From: Verrucomicrobiota bacterium
Lineage (GTDB): Bacteria; Verrucomicrobiota; Verrucomicrobiia; Limisphaerales; J093
Direction: 5' to 3'
Assembly: GCA_012517065.1 (NCBI GenBank)
Contig: JAAYVR010000068.1
Span: forward strand, 268-64,267
DNA: 64,000 nucleotides
Shown here piece after piece: positions 4,736 through 59,125 of this stretch. The position numbers and the translations under genes were made by a program. The notes beneath the pieces were generated by a model. It did not search any database. It had not been told where the DNA came from and saw only the letters and a list, made by a program, of their open reading frames with translations. How positions within the stretch are numbered: position 1 is the first letter of the stretch; each line of letters opens with the position of its first letter.

Positions 4736-4840
4736 CGGCAAGTACACGTCAGGCAACATGGCATCGCATGCTTGGCAGGACTGAGGCGGAGCCCAGCTAG
4801 CTATCGAACGGAATCATACGAGGACCGGGACTGATGCGAA

Positions 4841-32703: not shown

Positions 32704-35700
32704 TTAGAATGAGAACTCGACTGTTGAAGCCACTAACAGGGTGAGTTTCAAGTTGGTAAACAGTTGTTGGGTGGTAATGTGCAGGTTCACTGTCAGACCG
32801 CTGGGTCCGATGCCCAAGAGGGTATCCGCGAAACCTTGAGCGGCATCCTCGCGGAGGGTGTCTTCGCCCTGGTCAAAGCTCAGGTCGAAGATATACGTAT
32901 CGTTGCCGTAGCCACCGAAGAGGCTGTCGTTGCCGCCGTTACCGCGGAGTGTATCGTCGCCGGCGCCGCCGACCAAGATGTCGTTACCGCTACCGCCATA
33001 GAGCGTGTCGTTACCGCCCATTCCGACGAGCGATGCAATGCCCGAGAACATGGTAGCGTCGATGATGTTGTTGGATTTGCCGCCGACCAGGAGAGCTGCG
33101 CGGATGTCGATCAGTGTGTCAGTTTCGGTGCCTATTCTGAGGGATGCGTCACTGAGTTCGAAGTTGGCGTCGCGTGTTTCCCAGATTGTGTCGAGTGTGC
33201 CGCCGTTGCCAATGATCAAGTCGTCGCCAAGTCCGCCGATGAAGATGTTGTTCAGGTCGTTGCCGATGAGGACGTCGGCGTTGCGGGTGCCAATGATATT
33301 CTCGATTGCGTTGTCGTCTGAGAGGGTGAGCTTGAGGTTAGTAGCGTGCACGGTTTGCTGGGTCGTGAGTGAGAGATCGCCGATGACGCCTGTGGAAGTT
33401 GTGGCTGAAAAGTCGAGAGTGTCGAATCCGCCGGCGGCACCGGGCGACTCGAGGATGAAGTCCTCTCCGAGGGCGTCATCCACGTTGAAGCGGTAAGTAT
33501 CATCCCCGCCGTTACCGCTGAGGATATCGTCACCTGCTCCGCCGACGAGGACATCCTTGCCGGAACCGCCGGATAGGAAGTCGTTGCCGCCGAGGCCGAT
33601 CAATGTTGTTTGGCCGGTGAAGGCCGAGGCATCGATGGTGTTGTCGGAGGAGCCGCCGGTGAGGACAGCCTTTTGGATGCTCGAGAGGGTTGTCGAGACA
33701 CCTGCGATGGTGATCTCGGTGTCGGTGAGTGTGAAGTCGGCGTCGGCTGTTTCTACGATTGTGTTTGTACCGCCAGCGCCATGGATGAAGTTCTCGCCGG
33801 GCCCGCCGGTAAACGTATTGTCGAGGTCATTGCCGAGGAGCATGTCGTCGCCCGAGCCACCGATTATGTTTTCGATGTCAGGCAGAAGGAAGTAGAAGTA
33901 CAGCTCATCCGTGGCGGCAGTTTGTGTGGAGCCGAGGGTGCTGAGGTCGATTGTGAGGTCGAGGGCGAACGCTGACAAATCCAACGTATCGATGCCGTTG
34001 TCAGTGCCGTCGGAGTTGCCACCCACAACCACGTTGATATCCATTCCTGCCTGGCCGTCTTGAAGGAAGATGAATAGGTCATCACCGTCGCCGCCTTCGA
34101 GCCAGTTTGCGCCGGGGCCGGGCATGATTATGTCGTCGCCGGCTTTGCCGTAGATGAATGCCGCGCCCGTGAAAGCCGAAGCATCAATGGTGTCATTGTT
34201 GGCGGTGCCAACGATGAATGCTTGTTCGACCGAGTCGAAGAAAATAGAGCTGTCGCTATTAGTGAATGTGACGCTTGAATTAGTGATCGTTGTTGAGCTG
34301 CCGGGTTGTGTGGGGTCTGTTGGGGTTGGGATATTGAGTTTGACGGTGTCGGTGCCGCCAGCAGCTTGGATGATGAGGGAACCGGTGGTCCATCCGCTGA
34401 CGTCGAAACTGTCATCATTAGCGCTGCCGACCATGACAGCCGTTTCGATTCCGATCAGCGTATCGACATCTATGATCGACTTGTCGATTGGGAACGGTAT
34501 TGGATCGTGTTGTGTGATGAAGAGTAGATTATTCTGGAGGACGAAGCTGACCTTCCATGTGACAGCAGAGAGGTCTTCAGCGATCGAGTTGTCGCCGGCA
34601 CCGCCGTCGAGGATGTCGTTGCCGCCGTTGCCGGTGAGGGTATCATTGCCGGGGCCGCCGCGGAGGATGTCTGCGCCTGAACCGCCGATCAGGGTATCAT
34701 TGCTCTCGTTGCCGACGAGGGTAGCTCGACCGGAGAAGTTGGACGCGTCCAAGCTGTTGTCGTTTTGGCCGCCGACTAGAGTTGCGCGTTCGACTGAGGA
34801 CAGAGTCATGGACGCTGAGGTGGCGCCGGTGGTCATTGTCACGGAGGTGTCAGTGAGGATGAAATTGGCATCAGCTTCCCAGACGATGGTGTCGATTCCG
34901 GCCGCGCCATTGATGGAGCCGGTACCTGTCCAGCCTGTGAGGGTGAAAGAGTCTGCTCCGGGACCGCCTGTTAGATTGGCGATTTCGATACTGTCGAGTG
35001 AATCTTCTTCTATTCCGCGTATGAGCTTTTTGTTTGTGAGGGTGAAACTGGCGTTTGCGGATTCGTCAATTCTGTCTGTGCCCTCGCCGCCGAGGAGGGT
35101 ATCATTGCCGGGTCCACCGTCGAGGATATCGTCACCGTTCTTGCCATCGAGCAGGTCCACTCCGGGTCCGCCGTGGAGGATGTTGTTGTTGCCGTTGCCA
35201 CGGATGACGTCGTTTAGCGCGCCGCCGAAGACTTCCTCGATGCCTTCACCGACCAACTTGAGCTGGAGGTTAGCGTTGACAGCTTGGAAAGCGTCGAGAA
35301 TGCCCATGTTAAGGTTGATTTGTTGGCCGGTTGTGGGCGAGAAATCGAGGGTGTCGGTTCCCGGGTCGGACAATAGCTCGACGATGGTTTCACTGCCCCA
35401 AGCGAGGTCAGTATCAAAGACATAAGTTTCGTTTCCGGGGCCGCCTGCGAGCAGGTCATCGCCGGGTCCGCCGATGAGGACATTATCGAGGGCGTTGCCG
35501 TAGAGTTTGTCATTGCCAAAGCCGCCTGTGACGTTTTCGAGGTAATCTTTGAGTATGAGGGTGAGGTTGCCGTTGACGTCCTGAGTTGAGTTGAGCGTTT
35601 CGAGGTGAACGATGAGCTCGGCGACGGTGCCGGTGAAATCGAGAGTATCGGCGCCGCCGTTCCCGGTAACGGTGATGGTATCGAGTGGTGAATCTGCGAG

Positions 35701-38700
35701 GAACTGGAAGGTATCGTTGCTTGAACCGCCAATGTAGGTGTCATTGCCTTTGGTTGCGACGAATGTTACTGGGCGGGAATAACCTGCTGCGTTGATTGTG
35801 TTGGAGCCGTCACCGCCTGTCAGGACGACATTTTCGAGGGAGCTGAGGTGATAAGTCACGCTTGTTGGCAGGTTGATCGAGGCATCTTTTCTGAAACCAT
35901 AGAGGTAGGCGAACACAATCTTTTCGTAATTGGACGCGTCCTTGAGGATCATGTCGGTGTCGCTTTCGACGACGAGCGTGTCGTTGCCGCCTGCGCCATC
36001 GATGAAAGCTGTGGTGGTCCAACCCTTGAGTTCGAAGCGGTTGGCCTGGCTGTCGCCGGTGAGCTTTGCCACTTCGAAGGTATCGTGGAGAATGTGTTCG
36101 TTCAGTGTGACATATGACCCGAGCTGTATTTGTTGATGAACAAGGGAGGTGGGAGACAAGACGATGCCAGCAACACTCCGGACGGAAATGACAGTATCTT
36201 TTCCATGATCTCCGCGAATATCGTCGTCGCCCTGGCCGACGGTGATCTCGTCGTCGCCGAGGCTGCCCATCACGATATCGACTCCATCGCCGCCGGCGAG
36301 GACATCGTCGCCCAACTGGCCGTCGATGTAGTCTGCGCCGATGCCAGCGTCGATGGTGTCATTGCCCGGGCCACCGAAGAGGCGGATGTGACCGAGCTTT
36401 TCTGGGGGTTCGATACCGGTACCGTCTTGGTATTCAGCGACGACTGCGTAACCGGGGATGTTGCCAGAGTCGCCAAGGATGATGTCCCAGTCTAGGCCGC
36501 CCTGGATGTTGTCGTCGTCTGAGATGGTCGGGTTTGCCTCGCCTACGATATACACGGTGGCGGTGTCGTAGGGTCTGCCTGTGGCGTCGTTCAGAGTGAG
36601 GGTGAAATAGCGGAATTCGGTGAATCCAAGGTGGCGATTGAAGACACGTATGCGGAGCGTTTTGACCTGTTCACCGACGTCGAAGACGAGTACAGCGATT
36701 GTGGCTTCGTAATTGCGGGTGAGGTCGGGTGATGATTTGGCGCCGTTTGGGCCTGTGCCGTCCTGGGTCTTAACCACGACGACGCCGGGGACGGAGGTAT
36801 CTTTGCGGGTGACGATGATTTCGACGTAGCCGGGCTTCACTTCTGAGACGCTGTATGTGGCACGGCTGAACTGGTAGGTGCTGCCAAGGGTCAGAGCGCT
36901 GGTCGAGATCACACCGGCGTCTATTGATGTTTTTGTTGGGGACGCTGCGCTGATTGCGATCGCACGGGTGCGATTGACGAATTCGGCGTCACTGTCGGTG
37001 CCGGTGGTATCTTTGTCAGGATCAGGGTCTCCTTGGTTGGGCTCGACGAACGTGTAGCCATCGGGGAGCTCGAATTGGACGACGTATTTTGTCTCTACGG
37101 TTGGATGGTCGGAGTCAACAAAGAGGTTTGTGAACAAGTATTTGCCGTCGGTGGAGAAGACAGCGTTGACGGGGTTACCAACTTCGTCGAGCAGGACCAC
37201 GAGCACGCCTTCAGTGAAGAGAGTGTCACCAAGGTTCTGGACGTTGTTGCCGTTCCCATCGAGCCAGATTTCGCCGCTGATTGCGCCGGGGAACAATTGG
37301 GGTGTGACGGAAAAGATCGGGCCGCTGTCGTAAATTGGGTGGAGCTGAGTTCCGGCGGGCAGGCCATATACCGCGTGGAGGTCGGTGTCTTTGGTGACAG
37401 TTACGACAGTTGCGTTGTAAGCGGTATTGTTGACCGGCATGTGGGAGTCGGTGGCGGTTTGCCAGTGACCACCGATGACGTGGTCATCGCCTGCGCCGGC
37501 GTCGATGGTATCGTTGCCGGGGCCGCCGAAGATTGTGTCATCGGTGCCGCCCCGGCCTACGGCTTTGGCTTTTTCTGGGAGGGTGAAACTGAAGCTGTTC
37601 TTGTAACCGACCGGTGTGAACGGGGATATGCCGACAACACCGTCGAACTTTTCTGCCTGAACCTCATTGTTCGTAGTAGTTACATACGAACCTGAACCGA
37701 AGAGTGGGAACAGAAGGGTTGGCCACAAGTCCTGGAACGGTGATTTGACGGTGGTGCCATCGACAGAGATTGAGACCTGGCCGAGGGCAACGTTGGCGGT
37801 GTACTTGCCGGCATCGATTCCTTTGGCTGTCTTGACGGTGGTCTGTTTATGGATGCCACTCTGCATCCAAGTGATTGTGACGGAGACATCAGCAATGCCG
37901 TTTTCACCGATGTCGAGAAAACCGTTGCCGTTGGTATCATAGAAAACCATTCCTTCAACAGGATACAGGTCATCGTCATAGATTGGGCATGCGGCGATGA
38001 AGTCTTTCTTTGCGAGAGTGGCGCGGACAGGGCTGCTGAGTCGGACGTAGAATTGCTCGGTCAATTCCGGGTCTGCATCGCGTGTGATTATCACCTCGAC
38101 AGTTGTGCTTGTACCGTGCTCTGGGATGGAGGCTGTGCCTGAGGCGAAGGTGTAATCGTCGCCTGTCAAAGCTGTGCCGCGCACAGTGGCCCAGTCAACG
38201 GTCACGCCGCCGGGCGGGGCGGGTTTATCGAGGCTGATTGTGAACTTTGCGGTGGTCGAACCCGGGCCAGTACCTTCGTTGACGCCGTAAACCACTTTGA
38301 AGCGCTTCTCGACGTCGTCGTAGAAGATGCCGATCAGGGGGGCGCGGATGGAAACCACGGGAACGTCGGCATCGTGTATGGTCAGGGTTGCGGTGTCAGG
38401 AGCGGCTCGGACATTGCCGCCGGTTGGGTTGCGGAGGTACAAGAACACTGTTTCGTCGCCCTCGGACAGGTCGTCGGCGTATATTGGTATGCGCACGGCC
38501 TTGGTTGTTTCATTGCCGGCGAAATAGACGAGCTGGCGGAAGAGCGCGCCGTAATCGGCGCCGGCTGTGGCGGTACCGTTTGTGGTGTAGAAGACCGCGA
38601 CTGGTTGTGAGGAACCCGGGGTGCGATGGATTGTGATGTTGGCGTACGCGATGCCCGAGTCTGGTTCTTGCACTTCATAGTCCAGGCTTCCGAAGAAAAC

Positions 38701-41700
38701 GCTCCAGGGTCCGATGTCGTGTGTGAACGCATCATCGTTATTGATCGTGATGGTGTAATGGTTGCTTTCGTTGGGCGGGTTTGCGGCGATGTCGGCGTTG
38801 TCAGCGTTGATCAGGTTTACGAAAAAGGTCTCATTCGGCTCGCGTCGTGTGTCGCCAAACACCTTTACTCTGATGGTCCTGGTTAGCTCGCCGGGGGCGA
38901 ACACGATCGTCTGCTGGCTTTTCGGCATGGAGTCATTTGGACTTGGCTCGTAATCGGGGCCGTTGCCGGGGTCATCTGTATAAACAGCTTCGACGGCAGT
39001 ACCCGGCGAGGTGGCATAAGAGACGGTGATTTTGTGGCCGCTGACCTTGGAGAGGCTGACCTCGATGGGGACGCTTGTGTAACCCCAACTGCCTTCGTTA
39101 ATGGCTGTCGAGAACACGAGTGGTTCGCCCGGCTTGTGTATCGAGACGCTTACGGGCGCATCGTCGTCAGGGATTATGCCGTAGGCGCGGCCGTCGCTGA
39201 TCCGGGCGTAAGCGGGGTTGAAAAGATCGACGTAGATTCGTTCGTCTGGTTCATCAAGGTCATCGTCTCTGTAGTGGACTTTGATGCTCTTGAACATCTC
39301 GCCCGCCTTGAAAGTGATCTCGGCCGGGGCGGGCTGGTTATAATCGCCATCCAAGTAAGCGGGATATGGTTTGGCCGGGTTTTCACCGCAAGCGCAACTG
39401 TAGTCGGAATCCACGAGGTACCAAACGGTGACATCGTACTCACTTGGATTGGAGAGAGAAACGATGAACTCGGCGGTTGTGTTTTCCGGGACAGTGTAAA
39501 CTCGCTGGCCGTTTGCGAGGAGTGTCGAGGGCGGGACATAGTCGGCGATGGAAATCTGGGGTACAGCGTCATCGTTGATTATTGTAACGAGGGCGGTCGT
39601 TTCGGGAAGCGTTGGCAGTTTGATACCTGCAGATGGGTTTGAGAGGATAACTTGGAATTGTTGGTGCTCTTCGTAAGTGATGTCGCCAAGTACGACGACG
39701 TTGATTGTCTTGGACGTTTCGCCGGGCGCGAAGACGAGCGTGCCGGACGTTGGTATGTAATCACCCGAATCGGCGATTGCGTTGCGGTGTGAAGCCGGGG
39801 GTGCGTCACCATCCTTAGTACGGTAATTGAGGGAGACGGTTGTACGCTGGGGGCCTGAAAGGGTGACGGTCAATGTGACTGTGGTTTGGCCGGTATTGCC
39901 TTCTGTGACTGATACATCGTTGATTGAGACGAGCGGGTCGCCTTCGTAGCCAGCGGTGACGTTTCGTTCAGTTTCATCGAAGGTTAGTTGAAAGTCGGGC
40001 GTGCGACCTTTGAGCGGTCCGGTTGGGTAAACGTCGCTGTCGTTGGCAGCGGATTCGGCGTCAGGTGCACTGCCGCCAGCGATGAAGTTCATGCCAGCAA
40101 CGGAACTGAAGGTCATGTAATAGCGGTCAGGGTCAAGGCCGGTGAACTTGAATGATCCGTCCACATCGGTTTTGGTTGAGCCGATAAGCAGATCATCATT
40201 GCGGTAGAGGGTCACCGTTACCCCGCCGAAGCCGAGTTCATCGGCGTCTTTGAGGCCATTCTTGTTGAGGTCAAAGAAGATGGCGGACTGTATGGCGATA
40301 CCGGTATCGCGGTCGCCGGTTTTACCCATCGAATCATCGCCGAATATGGAATCGTTGCCCGGACCGCCATCGAAGAAGTCGTTGTCATCTTCCTCGATCG
40401 GTTCGGTTTCACCGTTGTTGAGGAAATTGCCGCCGTACAGGAAATCGTCGCCCGGACCGCCGAAGAGGACATCGATGTTGCCGCCGCCGATCAAGATATC
40501 GTTACCGATGGCCGTGCTGGTGTCACCGGGGATATTGCGAAGGGTGATTCCGTTGGTGGGGATGGCGGCTATTGCAGTGCGAATTGCGTCAAGGTTTGTC
40601 TGAGTGATTGGAAGGCTGTTTATGGTAGCTGGGTTCGCGGGGTCGTCGTCGCCGATAAGAAGGTCAATGCCGCCGTGGCCATTGGCCCAGTCGCTGCCGC
40701 CGCCGCCGAGGAGGAGATCATTGCCCGAGCTGCCGTAGAGCTTGTCGTCGCCGGTGCCACCTTCGAGGAAGTCGTCACCGCGGCTGCCGCGGACGATATC
40801 ATTGCCACCGTCGCCGCGGATCCAGTCGTTGCCCGGGCCGCCTTCGATTGTGTCGTTGCCGAGACCGCCGCGGACGAGGTCGTTGCCGTCGCCGGCGTCG
40901 ATTGTATCATCGCCATCTGGGCTTGTGCCGGTGCCATCGTCGCCGTAGAGCTCATCGGCTTCGGGGCTGCCGGTGATGGTATCGTTGCCGGCGTCACCCC
41001 AGATTTTGATGGCGGTCGGACCGGCGACGAGGATGTCATTGCCGGCTCCGCCATGGATTTCGACGCCTGTGACATCGGTGTTGGGGCTGGCTGTGATTGT
41101 GTCATTGCCGTCGTCACCGAAAGCTTTGGAGTCTTTGCCGTCGCCGAGGAAGATTGTGTCATTGCCCGAGCCGCCGTGGACTTCGACTGTGGAGAGGACA
41201 CCGCGGAAATCGAGGTAATCGTCGCCCTGGCCGGCGTCAGAGACAACGATGTGGCCGACATGCTCGAAGGTTTGTTTGTAGTTGGCCCACTGGACTTCAA
41301 CGGTTTCGTCACCGGCGGCGCCGCCTGTGTGTTTGATGATGAACGTTTCCGAGCTGTCGGAGGTATCGATTTCGAGGCGATTGGGTGCGCGGCTGCCGAT
41401 GTTGATCAACAGATCGGTGCCGGAGCGTTCGGCCAACACTGGTTGCGGGCAGGTGATTTCAAATGAAAAGAGTGTGATTTCGGCGAACCGCCATGTCTTG
41501 TCTATGCTGAAAAAGAACAGATCGATTTTCAGGAATGCCTCGAGGAACAGGTATATTTTGCCTGCGATATCGAAGATGCAGCGCGGGTCTTGCTGGGCGT
41601 TGGCGATGATTTCACTGACGCGCACTTTGCCGTCGTCATTGACGTCGTTGAGGTCGAAAGTGAGTTCGAAGCCGAGGCCGCCTTTGACGCCGGCTTCGAC

Positions 41701-44700: not shown

Positions 44701-47700
44701 TGTGGAGCCGTTGAGTCCGGAGCCATTGTCTTTGGCGGTGATAGTGAAGGCGTTGTTATCGCCGTTGTAATTAACTATGAGCGAGCTTTTGGCAGTGGCT
44801 GATCCGCCGGCGGTCACGAGACTGGCTGCAGGAGCCCCGTTTTCATCCAAGGACACTGTCAGGGTGTTGGGGTTGAGATTGAAGAGCACCTCGATTTGAT
44901 GTTCGAGCTCAGCCAACGTCTTCTGGAGCGAGCTTTGCGACCCGCTGCTTGCTGCGGCGTCGATCAGGTCGGCGAATTTGGATGCGTAATCGAGCATGTC
45001 GTTGACGCTGATGTTGACGAACGGGAGTGGCTCGTCGAGGAATGAGAATGCCGAGAGCTGGCTTAGCGTATCGGCGATCATGTTGAGGGCTTTGATGATC
45101 TGAGTGAAGTTGAGGTTTGTGAAATTATCGAGGTTGCCGAGGTTCGGGTAGGTGAGAAAGATGCCCTTGTTGTTGGTTTCCGGGTCGTAGGGATTGGAGT
45201 TGTAATTGAGCTCTGTTATATCGGGTATCCAGATTGAGATTTCGGGGTTTGACCCCAGAGGGAAGGTGAACCCGAGGCCGCCGACGGAGATGTTGGCCAG
45301 GCGCGCGAGGAGGCTGCCTCCGAATTCGAATGCTGGCCCAAGATTCGAGATGTTGTTCGATGAAGTGTTGCTGAGCAATTCGTTGATGTAAAAGCGCTTT
45401 TCGCCAGTGGTTTGGTTTTCTATGGACAATGTTGCGCTGATTGGCGCGGTCGTAACACCGTCATAGGCAAGCGTGCCAAACGCACCGCCCGAAGTGCTGA
45501 TTTCAACGAACCCGAAATTGATTGAACCGTTGATGCCCGCTGCGGTCGTGTTGATCGAGAGTGCCCCTGTGAGTGTGGCGTCCTGGATGAACAAACCTTT
45601 CATCGGGCTGGTGGCGATCGAAACAAAAATGTGGTCGGATTCATCTAGCGGATCGTTCACGGGGTTGAGATCGACCGCTTCCATGCCAAAGCCCATTTCG
45701 GTCGCAAAGGGATCGTTCTTTGGTGAGATGACGATGATTCGGTTGATGATGCCGAGCTTGTCTGGCTTGGCGGAGATTGCGAGTCCGTTGCCTGCCTTTT
45801 GCGCGATGATCACGTCGCTGAGTTTGCCGCCAGCGTAAGATACGGTGGCGAAGACCTGGTTCAGGTCTTCTGCGAGGTTTTCGATGCTATTGTTTCCGGA
45901 TGTCAACCCCAGGGGAAGGGTGATAGGGAAAAGAGTGCTGTATGATGCTGTCGGGATTGGCTCGGCTTCGTTGAGGTAGATTCCGAAGTGGGCGTCAGCG
46001 CTCAGCTTTCCGTTGGCTGGGACCGGGACCATGCCCGAGGTAAAGACACGCGGCACCTCGGCAGCGCCGAGGTCAAATCCGAGTGTGATTTGGAAGCCCA
46101 CGGTGGCGGTGAACTCGAGAGCGCCATTGAGTGCTGCGCTGCCAATCGGGCCCAGGCTGATGTCGAAGTTGAACGGGAGAGTGGGCGAGCCAAAAAGGTC
46201 ACTTGTGCCGTATTGTTTAGTCAGGTTGAGCAGATAAGTATAGACGTTCTGTCTCGGGTCATAGACAGCGCCGCCGTCTCCATCAAGCGTACCATCATTA
46301 AGTATATCAGCCATCGCGCTGAAGAAGCCCTCGGTGCTCCAGCGTTCGACCAGCACCCCTGTGCCGGGCTCGAAGCCGAGCGCGGCAGCAGCGGCGTCTG
46401 CCTCGACCAAAGTCAAGGTGGTGCCCTTGGCGATTTCGTCTTCCGTGAGCGCGATGACGACGCGCTTATCCTTGTTGATGCGTGCCACGACGCGCCCGCT
46501 CAAGGCTGCCGCACCTATTGCTGTGTTGATCAAGGTAACGAGCTCGTTGCCGTCTCGTGTGTTGTTGTCACCCACGTCATCTTGGATCAAAAGCGTAACG
46601 GCTGGTTCTTCGCCGAGTTGGATTGTGAGGATGCCGTGGTGCTCGCCCGAAGTGTCATCATCGCCCAACGTGCCTTCATTCACGGTGGTGTCGAACATTG
46701 AACGGGATTGGAGCTCGACGCTCACCATGTACTTGTAGATTGAGTCGAGGAAAAGCTTCGACCAGTCGAACGCATCGCCGAGAGTCTTTCCGCCGGTGAA
46801 AGGTATCTCGACATCGAACAAGCTCGAGTCGCGGAGTGAATCAAACCACTGCCCAAGCTGGCGCAGCAGAACAACCCATTCGATCGGGCTGGCTTTAGCG
46901 AAATCGAAGTTGGCTATCGCGGCCAGGGGCGGGCCGAGGGTGAAATTGCCGGCACTGTCCACTGCGACGAGCAACACGTTATCACCGGCTCTGCGGAATT
47001 CGACGGTGTCACCGGCCACCTTTACGATCAATTGGAACGGCAGGGCAACGGATCCGATGTGAATGTGTCCGTCAACTGCTATCTGGACATAATTGCCCGA
47101 CGAAAGAGAAAGCGCGCGTGTCCCGTTGGGTGTCGTAACCGAGGCGTTTACGGCAGCGCCAGTGGTATTGAGCTTCAGCCCGATGGTGCCGCTCAACTGG
47201 ACCAACCCGGTCTCGAACTGGAGATCAGCATCGGCTGCGAGCCCTGCACTCGAGAGGACCATTGCTCCGGTGCCGTGGTCGAAAGAGACAACGCTGAGCG
47301 ATCCGGCGTTGAGCGAGAGATGCAGGTCGGTTACACCGATCTTGAAGACTGACTCGAGGGTGGAATCGCCGTTGGTGTCGATTTGAGCTCGTTCGATGAC
47401 GAAGTTGCCGCCGAGTGTGATGGCTTCGAGGATACCGGTGATTTCTGCTGTTCCGGCCACTGCAAGATAGTTGTGGTAGTACGGACCGACGAATCTGATC
47501 GATACGTTGTCGGCGGGATTATCGTTGATCGGCACCACGACGGGGCTGGGGTTGCCAACGTCAGCGCCGGTGTTGTTGAGCTGCAGCTTGAGGTTCTGAG
47601 CGGTGATGTTCAGGACACCCGCACCGCTCAGGCTGGCAGACTGCACTTTGACTTCGCCCGCAATGCCTGATGAGTAAATCACGAACGCGCCTGACCCTTG

Positions 47701-50700
47701 TGACACCTGCAGTCCGATCGTCCCCGACCCGATCAGTGCGCTCACGTCAGAGGCGGCCACGGTGAGGTAGCCGGGTGTTCCGTTGACAAGGGTGATGATG
47801 AACCGTCCGGAAATCGAAATCGATTGAGTGTCGCCGTCGATTGGAACGTTGATTGTAATCGGCGTTGGTCCTGAATCGAGTTTGTTGAACGGACCAGCGG
47901 GGAGGTCGAGGGCGGTTGGGTTGCCAAAGACCTGGTTAACCGCATTTCCCATTGTGTTGAAGGCCCAGTCGAAAGTGTGTGAGAAGCCTGTGCCGAAAGC
48001 GTTCACATGGACGGTTATCGAGCCCTTGCCGGCAATACCGGCGTCGTTGATTGCGAAGAAGCCGTTGCCGTTATCGGCCGTGAGGAGGCTGGTCCCGAAA
48101 TTGAAGCTCACCGAGTTTGCGGTCACGGTTATCATGCGGGAGCCGCTTTGAGAAGTGCGCTGCTCGAAGGTGAAGTTACCGGTCAATGTGGCTCCGAGGA
48201 AACCGAGTGAAACTCCCGTGCCACTGACGCGCAGGTAAGGGCCGGCCGGAAGATCAATGGTGACCGTTGATGCGCCCACGCTGACGGTTTCGCTGACGGC
48301 TGATGTCGAATTGTTGATGCTGACGGCGAATGAGCCTCCGATGGTCACACCGGGCACGTTGAGCGAGACTGTCGCGCCAGCCGTGCCGGCCAGGCTTGTG
48401 GCTGTTATAATGAAAGCTCCACTGCCGCCTGTAACGCTAAGCAGGTTGTTCGCTGTTGCGCCCAGATTCAGCGACAGACCGGACGCTGCCACTGTCACTA
48501 CCCATTCGCCGCCTGTTGTGGTTTGGGTGCGCTCGAACGTGAAGTTCCCTGTAACGCCTATGCCCTGCACAGTGAGGGATGCGCTCGTGGCGCTAACCCT
48601 GAGGAACGGTCCGGCGGGCACGTTCACTGTGACGCTGGTGCCGTTTACGTTTAAGGTCTGGTTGTAAGCGGTGTTCGAGTTGTTAAGCGAAACTGAGAAA
48701 GAACCGCTCAGGCCAAGGCCGGATACTGCCAGAGCGACGGTGGCCGACGCCGAACCAACGATGCCCTGGCTGCGGAAAACAAACGCACCTGTGCCGTTGG
48801 TGACGCTCAGGATCGGATTCGTGCCATCACCAAAACCGAATGACAAGTTAGCGACTCCGACGGCAACTTCCTCGTACCCGTTGCCGGGGTTCGAGTCCGC
48901 ATCGCGCGGCTCGAATGCGAAATCGCCCTCGAGGCTTGCCTGCGGCGTGGTCAGGCCGATAAGCCCATGGCCACGCACGCGGTAATATCGTCCTGCGGGC
49001 AGGTTAACAGTTGTACCGGCGATTTCAGAAACAGCGCTTTCAGAGGTGTTTAAGGCCAAAGTCAACCCTGTCGCGCTCAAAGTGATGTTCGGGATGGCCG
49101 GCCCAAGGGCGAAATCGAGGGTCAAAACACCCGCCAAATCGCCGCCGATCAGCGCGAATGTGCCGAAGCCATTCTGGACGCTCAACACACGGCTTGTGCC
49201 CGCGCCGAGCTGGAAACTGACGTTTTCGGCTTCGAGCACGGTTTGTGTGCCAGTGTTTCTGAACGTGAAAGTCCCGGTGAGCGTTTGTCCCATTATGGTC
49301 AAGGTGCTGGCCACACCAAGGCTCAGCTCTGGGGCGCGCGTGAACAGATCATCAGATTGAACGTACACGACATATGTTCCGCTCAGGGAAAACCCTGCAA
49401 AACTGAGCGAGCCAGTCAACGGAAGGACCGCATCGAGCGTGCCGATCTTGTTCAAGTTGAACGCATTTCCGATGTTGGATGCGCCAAGTCCCGCGAGGGT
49501 TGACTGGGTTATTCGGCCGCCGGTGAGAATGCTCTCGTCCGGCGTTGCCAGGACGGCAGCGTCGAGGTTAATTGAACCGCCGTTCACATTCAGACTCTGA
49601 GTCCCACCGGGTGTGTTGAAACTGAACCCGAAGCCGCTCAAACCCGTCGCATTGATTCGCGCGCGCAATCCAATCGAACGAACGCCAACAAAGAATCCCG
49701 TCCCGCTCTCATAACCAAAGGAAATGTCCAGCACAACGGCGCTGCTCACGTTAACCGTGGGGCTCCCATTGAACATCGCGCCAAACACCCCGCCGAGCAC
49801 GTCTTGCAGGGACCGATTTACTGCCGCCGGCGACAGTTCAAGATTGATGTCCCACCACACTGGTTCTGCCCCAGACGACCCGTAGTGGCCGAGAACACCT
49901 TTCACGTCAGCGGTGAATCCAGCGTAGTTTGTGCCGTCCCAGCCTTCGATCGATGACGTCACCTGTGAGACTCGGGGCAGCGTGGCGAGCAAGGAGGAAA
50001 TCCGGCCCTGGATGGCATTCAGGATTGCGGTTTGGGGATCGATCAAGCTGGCCACGCCAGTGCCGATCATGGGGATCGATTCGGCGAAAGCCTCGAGCCC
50101 CTCGAGTGCGTTACTCACATTCGCCAAGGTTCCCAGTCCGGCGTTGATTGCACCTGTGGCGTCACCGGTTAGAGCAGGAGTCTCGACCACGGTGAGCGTC
50201 AGGCCAGTGGCTGAGTAAGTCGGCTTGAACGACCAGGTCGGATGCCCGGGGATCGACGCGGTGCCGAGCCAGTTGGCGAACTCACCTTCAACGGTCGTCC
50301 ATGTGAAAATGAGGAAACTGTTCCCCAAGCTGGGAACAAATCCCCCGTAAAGTTGAATTTGGACAGTGCCACCGAGCCGTGCGAGCCCTGAAACATTGAT
50401 CTGGTCCCAGCCATTGGGATCGATTCCGGGGCCGGCGGTTCCGCCGATCTCGATGAGTGTGGTGCCCTCCGAGCCCTGGGTAAACTCGGAAACGTTTACT
50501 ATGCCTGGTGAATTGCCGGGCGATACCAAACCCGCGTTGAACAACCCACCTTGCAATGTGACATTGCCCGCCAGGACTTGCCCGACTTCAACAACCAAAC
50601 TTCCCCCATCCGCACTGCCTGTACTGGTCCCTATCAACTGACCTGGTGTTTCAGCAGCCGAATCCGCCGGGGGACCATTAGCCGCGCGCAGAGTTTCTGT

Positions 50701-51210
50701 CAGTTGTTGCGCAGCCGTTTCAACAAATTCCGGACGGGTCGAAACAGGTTGCGTTGGTGCAAATGGATCAAGTGTGATTTCCGGACTGGCCGGACCGGGT
50801 GACAGATCATCAGACTGTTCCTGCTCGGCCGGGCAGGACGGCGCGGGCGAGTCAGGCGCGGGCGATTCTTCGGATGCCGCGGCCTGTTGCGAGGCGTCTT
50901 GGTCTTCAAAACTGAACAAGTCGATCGGTTCCGACTGGCGGGCTGAGCTTGGCTCGAGGGCGGAAAAAGGCTCCATTTCAACAATCTCGGTTGCCCGGGC
51001 ATCGGCTGTGAATTGGGGGGCTTGAGCAGCCGCGGCTCCAAGCAGGAGACCGTCACCGGAAAGCAGAATTCGCGGCTCCAACGCCTCGAGCTCGAATTCA
51101 CGCTTTGACGGTCCAGTTCTCACAGTGAACCTTTGGAGATGGCTCTCGGGGTTTTGTTCAGTGAAGCCTTGTCCTCTTTGTGGTGGCCACGGAAGGAACA
51201 GCTTTTTCAA
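32704..51210 (-). CDS. Giant 6168-aa secreted RTX/Calx-beta adhesin-like protein
   Basis: A single uninterrupted 18.5-kb ORF with a TTG start. The N-terminus carries LEALEPRILLS. Degenerate ~110-aa beta-rich repeats occupy ~46.9-49.4 kb. The first GGxGxD block is at ~40.64-41.23 kb (EIHGGAGNDILVAG...). SdrD-B-like domains are present (FFDLNKNGLKDADELGFGGVTVTLY). Five tandem Calx-beta-like domains lie at ~37.98-39.96 kb, with one more at ~36.5-36.9 kb. Dense GGxGxD nonapeptide repeats run over 32.7-36.5 kb to within ~60 aa of the C-terminus. Confidence 0.85.
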   Translation of the reverse strand: MKKLFLPWPPQRGQGFTEQNPESHLQRFTVRTGPSKREFELEALEPRILLSGDGLLLGAAAAQAPQFTADARATEIVEMEPFSALEPSSARQSEPIDLFSFEDQDASQQAAASEESPAPDSPAPSCPAEQEQSDDLSPGPASPEITLDPFAPTQPVSTRPEFVETAAQQLTETLRAANGPPADSAAETPGQLIGTSTGSADGGSLVVEVGQVLAGNVTLQGGLFNAGLVSPGNSPGIVNVSEFTQGSEGTTLIEIGGTAGPGIDPNGWDQINVSGLARLGGTVQIQLYGGFVPSLGNSFLIFTWTTVEGEFANWLGTASIPGHPTWSFKPTYSATGLTLTVVETPALTGDATGAINAGLGTLANVSNALEGLEAFAESIPMIGTGVASLIDPQTAILNAIQGRISSLLATLPRVSQVTSSIEGWDGTNYAGFTADVKGVLGHYGSSGAEPVWWDINLELSPAAVNRSLQDVLGGVFGAMFNGSPTVNVSSAVVLDISFGYESGTGFFVGVRSIGLRARINATGLSGFGFSFNTPGGTQSLNVNGGSINLDAAVLATPDESILTGGRITQSTLAGLGASNIGNAFNLNKIGTLDAVLPLTGSLSFAGFSLSGTYVVYVQSDDLFTRAPELSLGVASTLTIMGQTLTGTFTFRNTGTQTVLEAENVSFQLGAGTSRVLSVQNGFGTFALIGGDLAGVLTLDFALGPAIPNITLSATGLTLALNTSESAVSEIAGTTVNLPAGRYYRVRGHGLIGLTTPQASLEGDFAFEPRDADSNPGNGYEEVAVGVANLSFGFGDGTNPILSVTNGTGAFVFRSQGIVGSASATVALAVSGLGLSGSFSVSLNNSNTAYNQTLNVNGTSVTVNVPAGPFLRVSATSASLTVQGIGVTGNFTFERTQTTTGGEWVVTVAASGLSLNLGATANNLLSVTGGSGAFIITATSLAGTAGATVSLNVPGVTIGGSFAVSINNSTSAVSETVSVGASTVTIDLPAGPYLRVSGTGVSLGFLGATLTGNFTFEQRTSQSGSRMITVTANSVSFNFGTSLLTADNGNGFFAINDAGIAGKGSITVHVNAFGTGFSHTFDWAFNTMGNAVNQVFGNPTALDLPAGPFNKLDSGPTPITINVPIDGDTQSISISGRFIITLVNGTPGYLTVAASDVSALIGSGTIGLQVSQGSGAFVIYSSGIAGEVKVQSASLSGAGVLNITAQNLKLQLNNTGADVGNPSPVVVPINDNPADNVSIRFVGPYYHNYLAVAGTAEITGILEAITLGGNFVIERAQIDTNGDSTLESVFKIGVTDLHLSLNAGSLSVVSFDHGTGAMVLSSAGLAADADLQFETGLVQLSGTIGLKLNTTGAAVNASVTTPNGTRALSLSSGNYVQIAVDGHIHIGSVALPFQLIVKVAGDTVEFRRAGDNVLLVAVDSAGNFTLGPPLAAIANFDFAKASPIEWVVLLRQLGQWFDSLRDSSLFDVEIPFTGGKTLGDAFDWSKLFLDSIYKYMVSVELQSRSMFDTTVNEGTLGDDDTSGEHHGILTIQLGEEPAVTLLIQDDVGDNNTRDGNELVTLINTAIGAAALSGRVVARINKDKRVVIALTEDEIAKGTTLTLVEADAAAAALGFEPGTGVLVERWSTEGFFSAMADILNDGTLDGDGGAVYDPRQNVYTYLLNLTKQYGTSDLFGSPTLPFNFDISLGPIGSAALNGALEFTATVGFQITLGFDLGAAEVPRVFTSGMVPVPANGKLSADAHFGIYLNEAEPIPTASYSTLFPITLPLGLTSGNNSIENLAEDLNQVFATVSYAGGKLSDVIIAQKAGNGLAISAKPDKLGIINRIIVISPKNDPFATEMGFGMEAVDLNPVNDPLDESDHIFVSIATSPMKGLFIQDATLTGALSINTTAAGINGSINFGFVEISTSGGAFGTLAYDGVTTAPISATLSIENQTTGEKRFYINELLSNTSSNNISNLGPAFEFGGSLLARLANISVGGLGFTFPLGSNPEISIWIPDITELNYNSNPYDPETNNKGIFLTYPNLGNLDNFTNLNFTQIIKALNMIADTLSQLSAFSFLDEPLPFVNISVNDMLDYASKFADLIDAAASSGSQSSLQKTLAELEHQIEVLFNLNPNTLTVSLDENGAPAASLVTAGGSATAKSSLIVNYNGDNNAFTITAKDNGSGLNGSTIRVVGDSAITDASARVVWDANAKRLTIKINPGKTTASAIVTAINAASSPWNASLAPPDPSGTNTGQGTITTVALKFSFVFSTAYANSLPFQLDLKDLLGKLAGDNPTIRSFLDLATTLVQIKGEGQITVSASAALTLDFGFDVSTPGTAKPFFYDSTGVDLLAKVTGTNINIEASLGSVFGIFIKNGRVTLDKDGDPDTGPPNDRGAVFRLGLNKRSSGRYYFDENWFNLDSIDLRLEGGVSAQLPIFAPLESSPLSGSADNNTDGYPDNYLVIEIPDLVTLFISEAVSTRATGSQKTVKFAGLNNDILVKSDGTYTDFKIIFLDTLSGNNANASFNTATNTLTVNIDAGVTTATVALNAIKTATGAAGHFAPTELADDDGNPTTTGNDGTGKLEKLFIVTPNFSSLFDGLQICDVIANSLDEILAGLDKLLGWIEDGLNEIVFNTDLPLVGKGLKGAANFISNFRNGLLRELQQEIEAAGGNGLTAMENAIKKALWNSLGPGGLNWLVDYETGDPLDVSAGFSQLDVTLDCETGLKVNIRIAKSIALLDTTENPIDFDIGVPGFGLEVDGNVVVSLGFDLKFGFGVDLTNGFYFNTSAPASDPELRIYFRAEIPGLHAAGQLLFLQLDVMDDSDSPSFFEGAFEVDLADPNHDNKLTMAELFSSGTRFKDIIHAVLGAEADVNLNLIASFGGNTAFPRVLADFHLGWTFDTNNGAGDPQISFTNIRLDLGTFISDFLGPILKEIRKVTEPVQPIIDIVTARLPVISDLAGQKITLLDLAELFGLLEPSTVDFIQGVLDVVSLINKLEGLGEGTILIPFGSFNLLEGSDGRRTNIQALENIASRTMDEIAAAAAAATASGASSTYTSAVSGFVSDVGSLSNFSIPIFDNPAELFNLFIGEPVRLVEWRMPTFKFKFTYTQKIPIYPPLYAQFGGTIGADINIGFGYDTYGIQKYISSEDKNWVDILDGFYVLDFDASGNEQPELRLYGELFAGASINLVIVEAGVKGGLGFELTFDLNDVNDDGKVRVSEIIANAQQDPRCIFDIAGKIYLFLEAFLKIDLFFFSIDKTWRFAEITLFSFEITCPQPVLAERSGTDLLINIGSRAPNRLEIDTSDSSETFIIKHTGGAAGDETVEVQWANYKQTFEHVGHIVVSDAGQGDDYLDFRGVLSTVEVHGGSGNDTIFLGDGKDSKAFGDDGNDTITASPNTDVTGVEIHGGAGNDILVAGPTAIKIWGDAGNDTITGSPEADELYGDDGTGTSPDGDDTIDAGDGNDLVRGGLGNDTIEGGPGNDWIRGDGGNDIVRGSRGDDFLEGGTGDDKLYGSSGNDLLLGGGGSDWANGHGGIDLLIGDDDPANPATINSLPITQTNLDAIRTAIAAIPTNGITLRNIPGDTSTAIGNDILIGGGNIDVLFGGPGDDFLYGGNFLNNGETEPIEEDDNDFFDGGPGNDSIFGDDSMGKTGDRDTGIAIQSAIFFDLNKNGLKDADELGFGGVTVTLYRNDDLLIGSTKTDVDGSFKFTGLDPDRYYMTFSSVAGMNFIAGGSAPDAESAANDSDVYPTGPLKGRTPDFQLTFDETERNVTAGYEGDPLVSINDVSVTEGNTGQTTVTLTVTLSGPQRTTVSLNYRTKDGDAPPASHRNAIADSGDYIPTSGTLVFAPGETSKTINVVVLGDITYEEHQQFQVILSNPSAGIKLPTLPETTALVTIINDDAVPQISIADYVPPSTLLANGQRVYTVPENTTAEFIVSLSNPSEYDVTVWYLVDSDYSCACGENPAKPYPAYLDGDYNQPAPAEITFKAGEMFKSIKVHYRDDDLDEPDERIYVDLFNPAYARISDGRAYGIIPDDDAPVSVSIHKPGEPLVFSTAINEGSWGYTSVPIEVSLSKVSGHKITVSYATSPGTAVEAVYTDDPGNGPDYEPSPNDSMPKSQQTIVFAPGELTRTIRVKVFGDTRREPNETFFVNLINADNADIAANPPNESNHYTITINNDDAFTHDIGPWSVFFGSLDYEVQEPDSGIAYANITIHRTPGSSQPVAVFYTTNGTATAGADYGALFRQLVYFAGNETTKAVRIPIYADDLSEGDETVFLYLRNPTGGNVRAAPDTATLTIHDADVPVVSIRAPLIGIFYDDVEKRFKVVYGVNEGTGPGSTTAKFTISLDKPAPPGGVTVDWATVRGTALTGDDYTFASGTASIPEHGTSTTVEVIITRDADPELTEQFYVRLSSPVRATLAKKDFIAACPIYDDDLYPVEGMVFYDTNGNGFLDIGENGIADVSVTITWMQSGIHKQTTVKTAKGIDAGKYTANVALGQVSISVDGTTVKSPFQDLWPTLLFPLFGSGSYVTTTNNEVQAEKFDGVVGISPFTPVGYKNSFSFTLPEKAKAVGRGGTDDTIFGGPGNDTIDAGAGDDHVIGGHWQTATDSHMPVNNTAYNATVVTVTKDTDLHAVYGLPAGTQLHPIYDSGPIFSVTPQLFPGAISGEIWLDGNGNNVQNLGDTLFTEGVLVVLLDEVGNPVNAVFSTDGKYLFTNLFVDSDHPTVETKYVVQFELPDGYTFVEPNQGDPDPDKDTTGTDSDAEFVNRTRAIAISAASPTKTSIDAGVISTSALTLGSTYQFSRATYSVSEVKPGYVEIIVTRKDTSVPGVVVVKTQDGTGPNGAKSSPDLTRNYEATIAVLVFDVGEQVKTLRIRVFNRHLGFTEFRYFTLTLNDATGRPYDTATVYIVGEANPTISDDDNIQGGLDWDIILGDSGNIPGYAVVAEYQDGTGIEPPEKLGHIRLFGGPGNDTIDAGIGADYIDGQLGDDVLAGGDGVDIVMGSLGDDEITVGQGDDDIRGDHGKDTVISVRSVAGIVLSPTSLVHQQIQLGSYVTLNEHILHDTFEVAKLTGDSQANRFELKGWTTTAFIDGAGGNDTLVVESDTDMILKDASNYEKIVFAYLYGFRKDASINLPTSVTYHLSSLENVVLTGGDGSNTINAAGYSRPVTFVATKGNDTYIGGSSNDTFQFLADSPLDTITVTGNGGADTLDFTGTVAELIVHLETLNSTQDVNGNLTLILKDYLENVTGGFGNDKLYGNALDNVLIGGPGDDLLAGGPGNETYVFDTDLAWGSETIVELLSDPGTDTLDFSPTTGQQINLNMGILDAFQAVNANLQLKLVGEGIEEVFGGALNDVIRGNGNNNILHGGPGVDLLDGKNGDDILDGGPGNDTLLGGEGTDRIDESANASFTLTNKKLIRGIEEDSLDSIEIANLTGGPGADSFTLTGWTGTGSINGAAGIDTIVWEADANFILTDTSVTMTTGATSASMTLSSVERATLVGGQNDNSLDASNFSGRATLVGNESNDTLIGGSGADILRGGPGNDTLTGNGGNDILDGGAGDNSIAEDLSAVTWKVSFVLQNNLLFITQHDPIPFPIDKSIIDVDTLIGIETAVMVGSANDDSFDVSGWTTGSLIIQAAGGTDTVKLNIPTPTDPTQPGSSTTITNSSVTFTNSDSSIFFDSVEQAFIVGTANNDTIDASAFTGAAFIYGKAGDDIIMPGPGANWLEGGDGDDLFIFLQDGQAGMDINVVVGGNSDGTDNGIDTLDLSAFALDLTIDLSTLGSTQTAATDELYFYFLLPDIENIIGGSGDDMLLGNDLDNTFTGGPGENFIHGAGGTNTIVETADADFTLTDTEITIAGVSTTLSSIQKAVLTGGSSDNTIDASAFTGQTTLIGLGGNDFLSGGSGKDVLVGGAGDDILSGNGGDDTYRFNVDDALGEDFILESPGAAGGFDTLDFSATTSTGVIGDLSLTTQQTVHATNLKLTLSDDNAIENIIGTRNADVLIGNDLNNIFIGGLGDDLIIGNGGTLDTIWETRDANFELSDASLRIGTETDTLIDIRAALLVGGKSNNIIDATMFSGIASLVGMGGNDTLYGGSGNDILVGGAGDDTLRGNGGNDSLFGGYGNDTYIFDLSFDQGEDTLREDAAQGFADTLLGIGPSGLTVNLHITTQQLFTNLKLTLLVASTVEFSF

Positions 51211-56792: not shown

Positions 56793-57725
56793 TCATTGCC
56801 TGGACAGCGACCGTCTGTCATACACAGTCAATGGCGAGGAGCTGGCCGTTTCAAGCAACGCGTCGCGGGTCTTTAAAGCCGGAAGATTCACCGCGTTTTC
56901 AAGCTTTGGATAGCTATACTTGCGGCCGTCTTCGGCAACGATCTTGAGGTGTGTGCCGTTGACGACGGGTATTCGCTCGTCGTAACACGCATTGAGCATC
57001 CTAATCAAAGTTGCTCCCTGAGGACCACCCGAGACAGACGTGGTGATAAACGGCTCGCCATTCAAGAGATAGACGTCTGGTGTCGAATGGATCATGCTCT
57101 TTACAGTGGTGCCGTAGGTGCCATCGCGCACGGCATCATGAACATCGAAATCGATTTCACCAAAAACCCACACCTTTTCCCTGGTGAAAAAGTAGGGCAC
57201 TCCCTCGTACGCCTGGCTCAGAGGACGGGTGTTCGTGAAATTCTTTCTGAGGAGACCGTACAAGCCCATTTGTACTTGAAGTGCCGGATGGGACCCGCTG
57301 TGGTAAAGGTATGTGCCGGCGCTAACGTTCTTCCAGACGTATTGGACTGTTTGACCAGGCTGTGTCTCCTTGACGAACGACCGAGCCCGAGTTCGTCCAA
57401 ATGCGTCTTCAAAAGTGGTGTGCGATGCGTCACGAACGAATCCGTTCTGGCCCGGGATTACCAACGATACTGGCACATTCAGCTCGTTCTTCAGATTGAT
57501 GATCAGTTGGGTGTCTGCGACCGACACTGTAAGCGCGGGGCCGGGCGAGGTGGGCGCGCCATTTCCTATTGCGAATCCCCACATCAATACTTGGCGTCCA
57601 TTGACGGTTTTCGTGTAACTCGCGGCACGCATATTGAAGGTTGCCGCCGAAGCCCGAGGGGCAATGAGCAGGCAGAAGATACTCAGCATGGCGGGTGCAA
57701 GTGACTTGATAAGTAATCGGTTCAT
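56793..57725 (-). CDS. Two-cupredoxin multicopper-oxidase-like protein C, with all copper ligands lost
   Basis: Signal peptide ...LLIAPRASA. It is paralogous to protein B and to the C-terminal region of protein A (PGPALTV..., GTYLYHSGSHPALQVQMGLYGLL), but has VSLVIPGQNG in place of HxHxHG and no HCH or HSH motifs. Confidence 0.7.
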   Translation of the reverse strand: MNRLLIKSLAPAMLSIFCLLIAPRASAATFNMRAASYTKTVNGRQVLMWGFAIGNGAPTSPGPALTVSVADTQLIINLKNELNVPVSLVIPGQNGFVRDASHTTFEDAFGRTRARSFVKETQPGQTVQYVWKNVSAGTYLYHSGSHPALQVQMGLYGLLRKNFTNTRPLSQAYEGVPYFFTREKVWVFGEIDFDVHDAVRDGTYGTTVKSMIHSTPDVYLLNGEPFITTSVSGGPQGATLIRMLNACYDERIPVVNGTHLKIVAEDGRKYSYPKLENAVNLPALKTRDALLETASSSPLTVYDRRSLSRQ

Positions 57726-57779
57726 GTGTTCTCCTGTTTTTCGTTTTCGAGTAATGTTGGTCAGAATAGCAACTGGCCG

Positions 57780-59078: not shown

Positions 59079-59125
59079 TTTCACAATGTCCTTTCGCGGT
59101 GAGTTGCTGTGGTGAATTGGTGTTG

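Follow-up and report, generated by a model that had tools for sequence, protein, structure and literature searches.

A conserved 18.5-kb gene of a Verrucomicrobiota bacterium encodes a giant RTX protein whose N-terminal LEPR-XLL motif is a possible cargo signal

Giant surface proteins are the largest investments that bacterial genomes make, and to our knowledge neither the roles nor the export routes of those of Verrucomicrobiota and Planctomycetota are known. LapA of Pseudomonas, MpIBP of Marinomonas and SiiE of Salmonella are giant RTX adhesins of 0.5-1.5 MDa, repetitive, acidic and Ca2+-binding, that are exported by a type I secretion system (T1SS). The subject of this study is an 18.5-kb gene on the minus strand of a 64,000-nucleotide stretch of DNA (the window) from a Verrucomicrobiota bacterium of hot-spring type (GenBank assembly GCA_012517065.1, contig JAAYVR010000068.1, positions 268 to 64,267). 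It is a genuine and conserved gene for a giant, predicted Ca2+-binding surface protein of ~640 kDa, which shares with LapA, MpIBP and SiiE the size, the repetitiveness, the acidity, the predicted Ca2+-binding, an RTX region near the C-terminus, the absence of a Sec signal and a likely role in surface attachment or aggregation. Unlike in those systems, no ATP-binding cassette (ABC) transporter or membrane-fusion protein (MFP) genes are linked to it, its C-terminal tail repeats an internal unit, and it carries a 20-aa LEPR-XLL motif and ~3,200 aa without known domain, including a part that we call module X. Within aa 1-3200 LEPR-XLL gave the only match to the Pfam and NCBIfam family models, and with these models neither a retention module nor a LapG-type site was detected there.

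Giant genes of Planctomycetota and Omnitrophota encode signal peptides and C39 or S8 peptidase domains and have type II or pilus genes nearby (bioRxiv 10.1101/2023.11.21.568195). The window gene resembles them in its very long single open reading frame (ORF), its unannotated N-terminal part and its proposed surface or attachment role, but the signal peptide, the C39/S8 domains and the type II/pilus genes are absent from this locus. The LEPR-XLL family (NCBIfam NF012209) is defined by its motif alone, and our literature search found it mentioned only as an annotation label. Like its other members, the window protein is a very long, repetitive protein of the Planctomycetes-Verrucomicrobia-Chlamydiae (PVC) group headed at the extreme N-terminus by an above-cut-off motif, to which it adds a T1SS-like RTX C-terminus and module X.

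A locus of secondary SecA_DEAD, HlyD, Peptidase_M50 and OEP (TolC-family) genes has been described in Planctomycetes, Verrucomicrobia and Proteobacteria (Kamneva, Poudel & Ward 2015, PMC4452313); its biological role was reported as completely unknown and its substrates were not named (PMC4452313), and our search returned no later paper taking it up. It has the same phylum distribution as the giants and is related to T1SS without having an ABC transporter. It is a candidate export machine rather than a relative of the giant protein, is absent from this window, and adjoins LEPR-XLL giants in at least seven independent lineages, one of them with an orthologue of the window gene. The window gene can be seen as a variant of the giant RTX surface-protein theme that contains an unannotated, widespread domain and possibly carries a cargo signal for this orphan T1SS-related system. 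One such giant can now be followed as a conserved orthologue through many species, including cultured thermophilic Limisphaera strains, and a testable link is provided between the LEPR-XLL motif and the orphan SecA-like/HlyD/TolC operon. If true, the link would amount to a novel route by which very large proteins cross both membranes, and would give substrates to an operon described in 2015 and a function to a motif so far known as a label.

The frame was found to be unbroken from its TTG, with no internal stop, as first annotated. The features on which the argument depends are the following.

32704..51210, minus strand: whole ORF from the TTG, 6168 codons plus stop; colinear orthologous ORFs in at least 15 species
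51121..51123, minus strand: GTG, codon 30, probable true start from orthologue comparison; the product would then have 6139 aa
51043..51096, minus strand: LEPR-XLL N-terminal motif FELEALEPRILLSGDG (NF012209), aa 39-56 counted from the TTG and aa 10-27 counted from the GTG
28064..32614, minus strand: downstream partner gene, 1516 aa, with a Sec signal, five GEVED domains, IgGFc_binding and HYR (Pfam), 89 nt past the stop of the giant gene

A pattern-based scan of one genome per species returned 47 loci with module X (aa 2586-3300; positions are counted from the TTG unless stated). Limisphaera sp. VF-2, at 81% identity, and Limisphaera sp. 4302-co are among them, together with many metagenome-assembled genomes (MAGs) of Limisphaerales and Verrucomicrobiales; Planctomycetota, one cyanobacterium and a few Gammaproteobacteria are represented too. 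Verrucomicrobiota supply the closest sequences, with the partial MAG protein P0003 at 92% identity. At least 15 other Verrucomicrobiota species have one unbroken frame of 5,900-6,440 aa, colinear with the window protein from N-terminal domain through C-terminal tail; identity is 45-95%, and conservation varies with the region. The frames of Limisphaera sp. VF-2 (L009) and 4302-co (L011) have 6150 and 6173 codons. The GEVED partner stands directly downstream of the orthologue in L008, L009, L011, L012, L013, L019 and L051. A hidden frameshift or stop splitting the ORF was the condition named at the outset that would undo the annotation; because the colinear frames stay open in at least 15 other species and the partner gene is conserved, a frameshift artefact is practically excluded. 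That the locus is an artefact or pseudogene rather than one functional gene we consider extremely improbable; the observation in its favour is an orthologue called in pieces in one Limisphaera sp. MAG (GCA_026005195.1, L135 9139-25592). There it appears as five consecutive genes on the same strand, of 304, 1863, 639, 2235 and more than 1032 aa, a split that may reflect assembly frameshifts or genuine decay.

The initial annotation placed the TTG 2 nt after a GGAGGGG and named a GTG 29 codons downstream as an alternative start. The spacing has to be corrected, since the GGAGGGG directly adjoins the TTG and a gap of 2 nt is obtained only from the GGAGG core. The GTG is favoured over the TTG by the start spacing of the orthologues. 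In nine of 11 orthologues a GTG or TTG precedes LEPR by exactly 14 codons, codon 14 before LEPR is the sole possible start in Limisphaera sp. VF-2, and gene callers put LEPR at aa 12-16 in many family members. In the window gene the TTG is 45 codons and the GTG (codon 30) 16 codons upstream of LEPR. Because of this spacing, and because the 29 codons between TTG and GTG have no counterpart in the orthologues, translation probably starts at the GTG at 51121-51123, which would give a product of 6139 aa with the motif at aa 10-27. Scans for sigma-70 promoters and terminators were uninformative.

The LEPR-XLL motif had been overlooked in the initial annotation. The NF012209 model (LEPR-XLL, model name LEPR-8K), with a curated cut-off of 17 bits, scored 24.9 bits when the product is read from the TTG and 27.8 bits when it is read from the GTG, matching profile positions 1-18 of 24. 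The pattern xF(E/D)LEA-LEPRxLL-S(A/G)D is kept at the extreme N-terminus across the relatives from Verrucomicrobiota, Planctomycetota and Gammaproteobacteria. Of the 102 cluster representatives that contain module X and reach at least 3,000 aa, 62 have the LEPR motif, and in 35 of these 62 RTX is missing from the last 300 aa.

No Sec-type signal peptide was evident at the N-terminus in a hydrophobicity scan, in agreement with the initial annotation, and the neighbouring secreted proteins, with their textbook signal peptides, make an obvious contrast. We nevertheless considered export by Sec through an atypical signal, in which LEPR would serve as a charged n-region and ILLSGDGLLLGAAAAQA as h- and c-region with an AQA cleavage site, after which another route would lead to the outer membrane or surface. 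The most hydrophobic N-terminal stretch does lie directly after the motif (aa 48-62, Kyte-Doolittle 15-residue mean 1.68), and many orthologues have an Ala/Gly/Leu-rich stretch after LEPRxLLS. However, the stretch holds an Asp and is far less hydrophobic than the signal peptides of the neighbours, and what comes after the motif is polar or weakly hydrophobic and is conserved neither in sequence nor in hydrophobicity. Such a signal is thus improbable.

Since no Sec signal peptide is present, the giant protein would be exported in one step through an envelope-spanning machine of the HlyD/TolC type, with adaptor and outer-membrane channel, encoded elsewhere. The N-terminal LEPR-XLL is the better-supported targeting determinant, and the ABC-less system of secondary SecA_DEAD, M50-HlyD, GAF-HlyD and OEP proteins would be its receptor. 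Outside the cell the chain would fold with Ca2+ through its RTX blocks, its Calx-beta domains and the EF-hand-like loops of module X. A secreted Ca2+-binding fibre, adhesin or matrix protein, exported in one step and targeted by LEPR-XLL through an ABC-less system encoded elsewhere, is the reading that we prefer, at a confidence that falls somewhat short of even. Anatomy, conservation, start codon, the lack of secretion genes nearby and the operon neighbourhoods of other genomes were observed, and the location at the surface, the Ca2+-driven folding and the export route in this organism are inferred.

The evidence for the proposed machine came from the neighbourhoods of relatives. In the Phycisphaerae relatives L039 (1-5760) and L046 (2-5613), the genes divergent and upstream of the module-X giant encode a GAF-HlyD protein, directly next to the giant, then a PqqD/Peptidase_M50/HlyD fusion and a protein with SecA_DEAD and SecA_PP_bind domains. 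The Verrucomicrobia orthologue L026 also has a divergent GAF-HlyD gene directly upstream, and in L021 and L031 the gene immediately upstream of the orthologue encodes a TolC-family OEP protein (Pfam E 4e-27 and 6e-35). When metagenomes were scanned with the GAF-HlyD protein, at least 443 relatives came up, and 80 loci were retained. The order GAF-HlyD, M50/HlyD, 660-aa SecA-like ATPase was found in all 31 loci with enough downstream DNA, with an OEP gene nearby in 16 and a small HlyD gene in 21 of them, and no ABC signature occurred in the 757 kb around these operons. This operon of GAF-HlyD, PqqD-M50-HlyD and SecA-like genes is the locus of Kamneva et al. 2015; examples are L055 8637-16050 and L110 9105-17083.

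Approached from the side of the operon, a divergent LEPR-XLL ORF was found 0.6-1.8 kb away, always in the same orientation, in six of the 49 metagenome loci with at least 1.5 kb of upstream DNA. Against a background estimated from the rest of the same loci, 1.3-2.3 such ORFs would be expected (Poisson p ~0.002-0.009). The LEPR-linked lineages are independent, as the HlyD proteins of the six loci are mostly 45-58% identical to each other. The LEPR ORFs of L055, L087, L106 and L110 have no RTX motif, and by Pfam those of L055 and L110 have unrelated domains (DUF4394; P_proprotein, PPC and Reprolysin).

The constancy of the motif across the family, the neighbourhood links seen from both sides and the preprotein-binding domain retained by the SecA paralogue favour export through LEPR and the secondary SecA, a route we regard as tentative, a little under an even chance. 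So does the general argument that, with a signal at the N-terminus, a 6,000-aa chain can start to leave the cell while it is still being made. The more specific idea, that LEPR-XLL is the export signal of a T1SS-like, envelope-spanning machine driven by a SecA paralogue in place of an ABC transporter, which would take its cargo N-terminus first and possibly co-translationally, with the window protein as one cargo, is possible but doubtful. Several observations weigh against our reading. None of the genes of the GAF-HlyD/M50-HlyD/SecA-like operon is present in the 64-kb window, and of the ~23 Verrucomicrobiota orthologues with a readable upstream neighbour, about 20 have one without relation to the operon (DUF6600, a helicase, a sugar kinase and PSCyt2 are examples). 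The enrichment of LEPR-XLL ORFs next to the operon is moderate, with a background drawn from the same loci, and the conserved RTX C-terminus fits a classical T1SS equally well. Export by the SecA_DEAD operon and the role of LEPR-XLL as its signal are offered as proposals from sequence, and an adhesin or matrix function is suggested by the types of domain.

The remaining features of the protein, from the N-terminus to the C-terminus, are listed below.

50614..51042, minus strand: Pro/Ala/Ser/Glu-rich low-complexity linker by composition, aa 57-199, not conserved in orthologues
49303..50613, minus strand: N-terminal beta-rich domain without assignment, aa 200-636, no Pfam match, 33-60% identity in orthologues
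47095..49302, minus strand: six degenerate beta-repeats of ~120 aa, aa 637-1372, from iteration of internal profile hidden Markov models (HMMs) and self-BLAST, no Pfam match
43456..47094, minus strand: unique region without assignment, aa 1373-2585, no Pfam match at E<=10, colinear in orthologues
41311..43455, minus strand: module X, aa 2586-3300, the best-conserved part, with two EF-hand-like loops
40291..41232, minus strand: RTX block 1, aa 3327-3640, from Pfam and strict nonapeptide motifs
36571..40284, minus strand: SdrD_B/Calx-beta stalk, aa 3643-4880, with three SdrD_B, six Calx-beta and a short RTX stretch at aa ~4562
32890..36375, minus strand: RTX block 2, aa 4946-6107, nonapeptide runs alternating with spacer units of ~70-100 aa
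32707..32889, minus strand: C-terminal 61 aa without nonapeptides, ending in STVEFSF, the final copy of an internal spacer unit

The initial annotation described the last ~1260 residues as dense RTX repeats that stop about 60 aa before the C-terminus. The repeats are there and their end point is right, the last strict nonapeptide starting at aa 6099 and leaving a tail of 61 aa, but they are not dense, with 26 strict nonapeptides in ~1,220 aa and spacers of ~70-100 aa between the runs. Over the whole protein 39 strict GGxGxDxUx motifs were counted, 12 in aa 3346-3615, one at aa 4562 and these 26 in aa 4946-6099. The last 72 aa align with aa 5897-5970 at 43% identity (E 5e-8), with aa 5254-5320 at 34% (E 4e-7) and with aa 5155-5225 at 33%, and the terminal ..STVEFSF aligns with the internal ..IENIIGG that usually leads into the next nonapeptide run. 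Because it aligns with the internal units, the 61-aa tail is, as read from these alignments, the final, cut-off copy of a ~70-aa spacer unit and not a separate signal domain. The end point ..VE-x-S-F is nevertheless kept in 13-15 orthologues, and many cluster representatives end alike (..VE(F/Y)SF, ..VEHSL, ..IEDSFP, ..VENVVP); there must therefore be some constraint on the cut-off, from capping of the beta-roll or from a signal.

These results bear on the idea of a classical T1SS, with ABC, MFP and TolC proteins encoded elsewhere. Recognition would then fall to the uncleaved C-terminus, export would run C-terminus first with Ca2+-driven folding of the RTX repeats as a ratchet, and the LEPR-XLL N-terminus, emerging last, would serve to retain or anchor the protein or do something else. 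The idea can draw on an RTX block that reaches to 61 aa from the end, on the conserved end point, on the lack of a Sec signal, the acidic pI and the few Cys, and on the standalone protein P0005, which has module X and RTX without LEPR and ends in a typical RTX-type C-terminus. Precedent is abundant, and T1SS genes unlinked to their RTX substrates are common. On the other side, the tail is a spacer copy, and no curated T1SS C-terminal target model matched; NCBIfam searches of the last 200 aa returned RTX-family models only, with matches ending ~40-45 residues before the C-terminus. ABC transporter genes are lacking in the window, beside the ~23 orthologues and in the 757 kb around the HlyD operons. 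Finally, seven of the 22 complete family members of the genome set end in a wholly different sequence that is not RTX, and the 35 of 62 large LEPR-bearing representatives mentioned above lack a terminal RTX region. Classical T1SS export of this protein is possible, though we hold it to be unlikely on balance.

The absence of ABC transporter, HlyD and TolC genes from the 64 kb, stated in the initial annotation, was borne out: Pfam found no ABC transporter, HlyD-family adaptor or TolC-family/OEP gene among the 30 further ORFs of the window, and no Walker A plus LSGGQ signature occurred in any of its frames. The T1SS-type character that it gave to the protein is partly supported. RTX near the end, the missing Sec signal, the acidity and the scarcity of Cys stand, while the tail turned out to be a spacer copy and LEPR-XLL had been missed; the T1SS interpretation is plausible but incomplete. 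Features of type V secretion (T5SS), type IX secretion (T9SS) and PEP-CTERM sorting were also sought in Pfam and NCBIfam and gave no match, and neither a transmembrane segment nor a basic tail is present at the C-terminus; these three candidates were rejected, as no two-partner secretion (TPS) or autotransporter beta-domain, Por domain or PEP-CTERM anchor was matched.

The whole protein has a pI of 4.13, with 756 Asp and Glu against 298 Lys and Arg, and eight Cys, and the hydrophobicity scan found no transmembrane-grade stretch anywhere in it. Together with the RTX, Calx-beta and SdrD_B domains and the EF-hand-like loops, this composition points to an extracellular Ca2+-binding protein. Pfam matched HemolysinCabind in 17 stretches (E 3.6e-82), Calx-beta in six and SdrD_B in three of aa 3001-6168. 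HMMs built from the protein's own copies placed the Calx-beta domains at aa 3775-3863, 3910-4003, 4044-4140, 4188-4266, 4318-4398 and 4794-4880 and SdrD_B at aa 3643-3755 and 4421-4471, the third SdrD_B stretch being counted by Pfam. The second RTX block, the six Calx-beta domains and the SdrD_B domains of the initial annotation were all recovered in this way, as were its degenerate beta-repeats, which internal HMMs resolve into the six copies at aa 637-1372. A region of ~1600 aa had been described as free of recognised motifs; such a region exists, but its actual extent is aa 1-3200, where Pfam has no match. Self-comparison showed aa 1373-3300 to be unique sequence without internal repeats. 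An AlphaFold2 (AF2) model of aa 1400-2590, from a shallow alignment, was too poor to use (mean predicted local distance difference test, pLDDT, 44.8).

Within this region module X is a separate evolutionary module, since the homologues P0005 and P0006, RTX proteins ~1,950 aa long, have the counterpart of aa ~2586-3630 at their start. Its conservation against other regions of the same orthologues was as follows.

L009 (minus-strand module X at 41311..43455 as reference): module X 81% identity, other regions 48-67%
L016: module X 67% identity, other regions 42-55%
L027: module X 60% identity, other regions 30-43%

Word-indexed searches recovered only 7, 22 and 6 relatives, and an exhaustive search revealed a large family, in which at least 2,791 cluster representatives match module X at E<=1e-3, 1,151 of them even at E<=1e-30; among the matches listed, nearly all carriers have 2,000-8,000 aa. 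Module X is thus a large and widespread domain family without prior annotation. Even at E<=10, Pfam gave nothing on module X besides two faint EF-hand matches. These matches fall on the two EF-hand-like loops, which look canonical: DPNHDNKLTMAE (aa 2820-2831, window 42718-42753, minus strand) and DVNDDGKVRVSE (aa 3189-3200, window 41611-41646, minus strand), both kept in the family consensus. The AF2 model (pLDDT 75, predicted template-modelling score, pTM, 0.48) shows beta-hairpins of 13-19 residues mixed with long helices. Foldseek found no fold match for it in PDB or BFVD (best E 5e-3 and 6e-4, TM-score, TM, ~0.1), and a PDB sequence search with module X came back empty.

A large unannotated region combined with a strongly conserved module X could suggest a toxin of the multifunctional-autoprocessing RTX (MARTX) or contact-dependent kind, with an effector hidden in the 3,200 aa without assignment, and the beta-hairpins of module X do weakly and locally resemble membrane beta-barrels in Foldseek. 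However, no catalytic, cysteine protease domain (CPD), RtxA-repeat, effector or toxin family of Pfam or NCBIfam matched anywhere in the protein. The invariant residues of module X (Gly, Pro, hydrophobics and Asp) are not a catalytic set, and the Foldseek matches remain at TM ~0.1. The MARTX reading, which no Pfam or NCBIfam family match supports, is very unlikely. Likeness of module X to a membrane beta-barrel or a levivirus maturation protein was also rejected, as the weak Foldseek matches at this TM are not meaningful.

Some further carriers of module X were recorded. P0012 (ENA, 628 aa, on a 2,083-bp contig) consists of module X at residues 24-506 (71-73% identity) and matches Pfam OEP (TolC family, E 1.9e-9) at residues 466-600, a match that the window protein does not have; the OEP part lies largely past the module-X part and is probably due to a chimera rather than a property of module X, a real fusion being the alternative. 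At L003 15916-25919 and L006 14876-23009, the shorter module-X proteins P0004 and P0011 each have another giant ORF immediately after them, of more than 6,284 aa with RTX, FG-GAP and PKD domains and of more than 5,439 aa with PKD and dockerin domains, respectively. Either module X tends to occur in clusters of giant genes, or these are giant genes fragmented in assembly.

Both cultured Limisphaera strains with a full-length orthologue aggregate, VF2 in a fibrillar matrix (PMC13608581), and L. ngatamarikiensis does not aggregate (PMC13608581). L. ngatamarikiensis is not among the 47 module-X loci, an absence that the pattern-based scan leaves unproven. The correlation of gene and aggregation concerns three strains, with the absence unverified, and we took it as a lead on phenotype and not as evidence.

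In the window itself, no terminator-like site was found on the minus strand between the giant gene and the GEVED gene. An identical 20-nt hairpin plus T-run occurs on the plus strand inside the GEVED gene at 30819-30838 and 31320-31339, 501 nt apart; rather than terminators, the two sites are most likely a sign that the GEVED repeat is present in DNA copies that are nearly identical. Further along the minus strand, at 56793-63991, three multicopper-oxidase-like ORFs stand in a row (310, 449 and 1621 aa), and the 1621-aa ORF starts ~10 nt from the right edge of the window and possibly runs past it. The GEVED protein, a protein with He_PIG, Big_9 and propeller domains and a Peptidase_C25 protein, all on the minus strand, have Sec signal peptides. 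These three share a C-terminal module of ~55 aa (..L.W....G..Y.L..S..L....W.P....FYRV / FFRAIYP / FYRVSVQR) at 28064-28240, 51380-51560 and 53937-54120 (minus strand), for which no Pfam or NCBIfam name was found. The Peptidase_C25 protein weakly matches the T9SS sortase PorU, at 57.8 bits and thus below the cut-off of 420, and the ~55-aa module and this peptidase may represent a C-terminal sorting domain and its processing peptidase.

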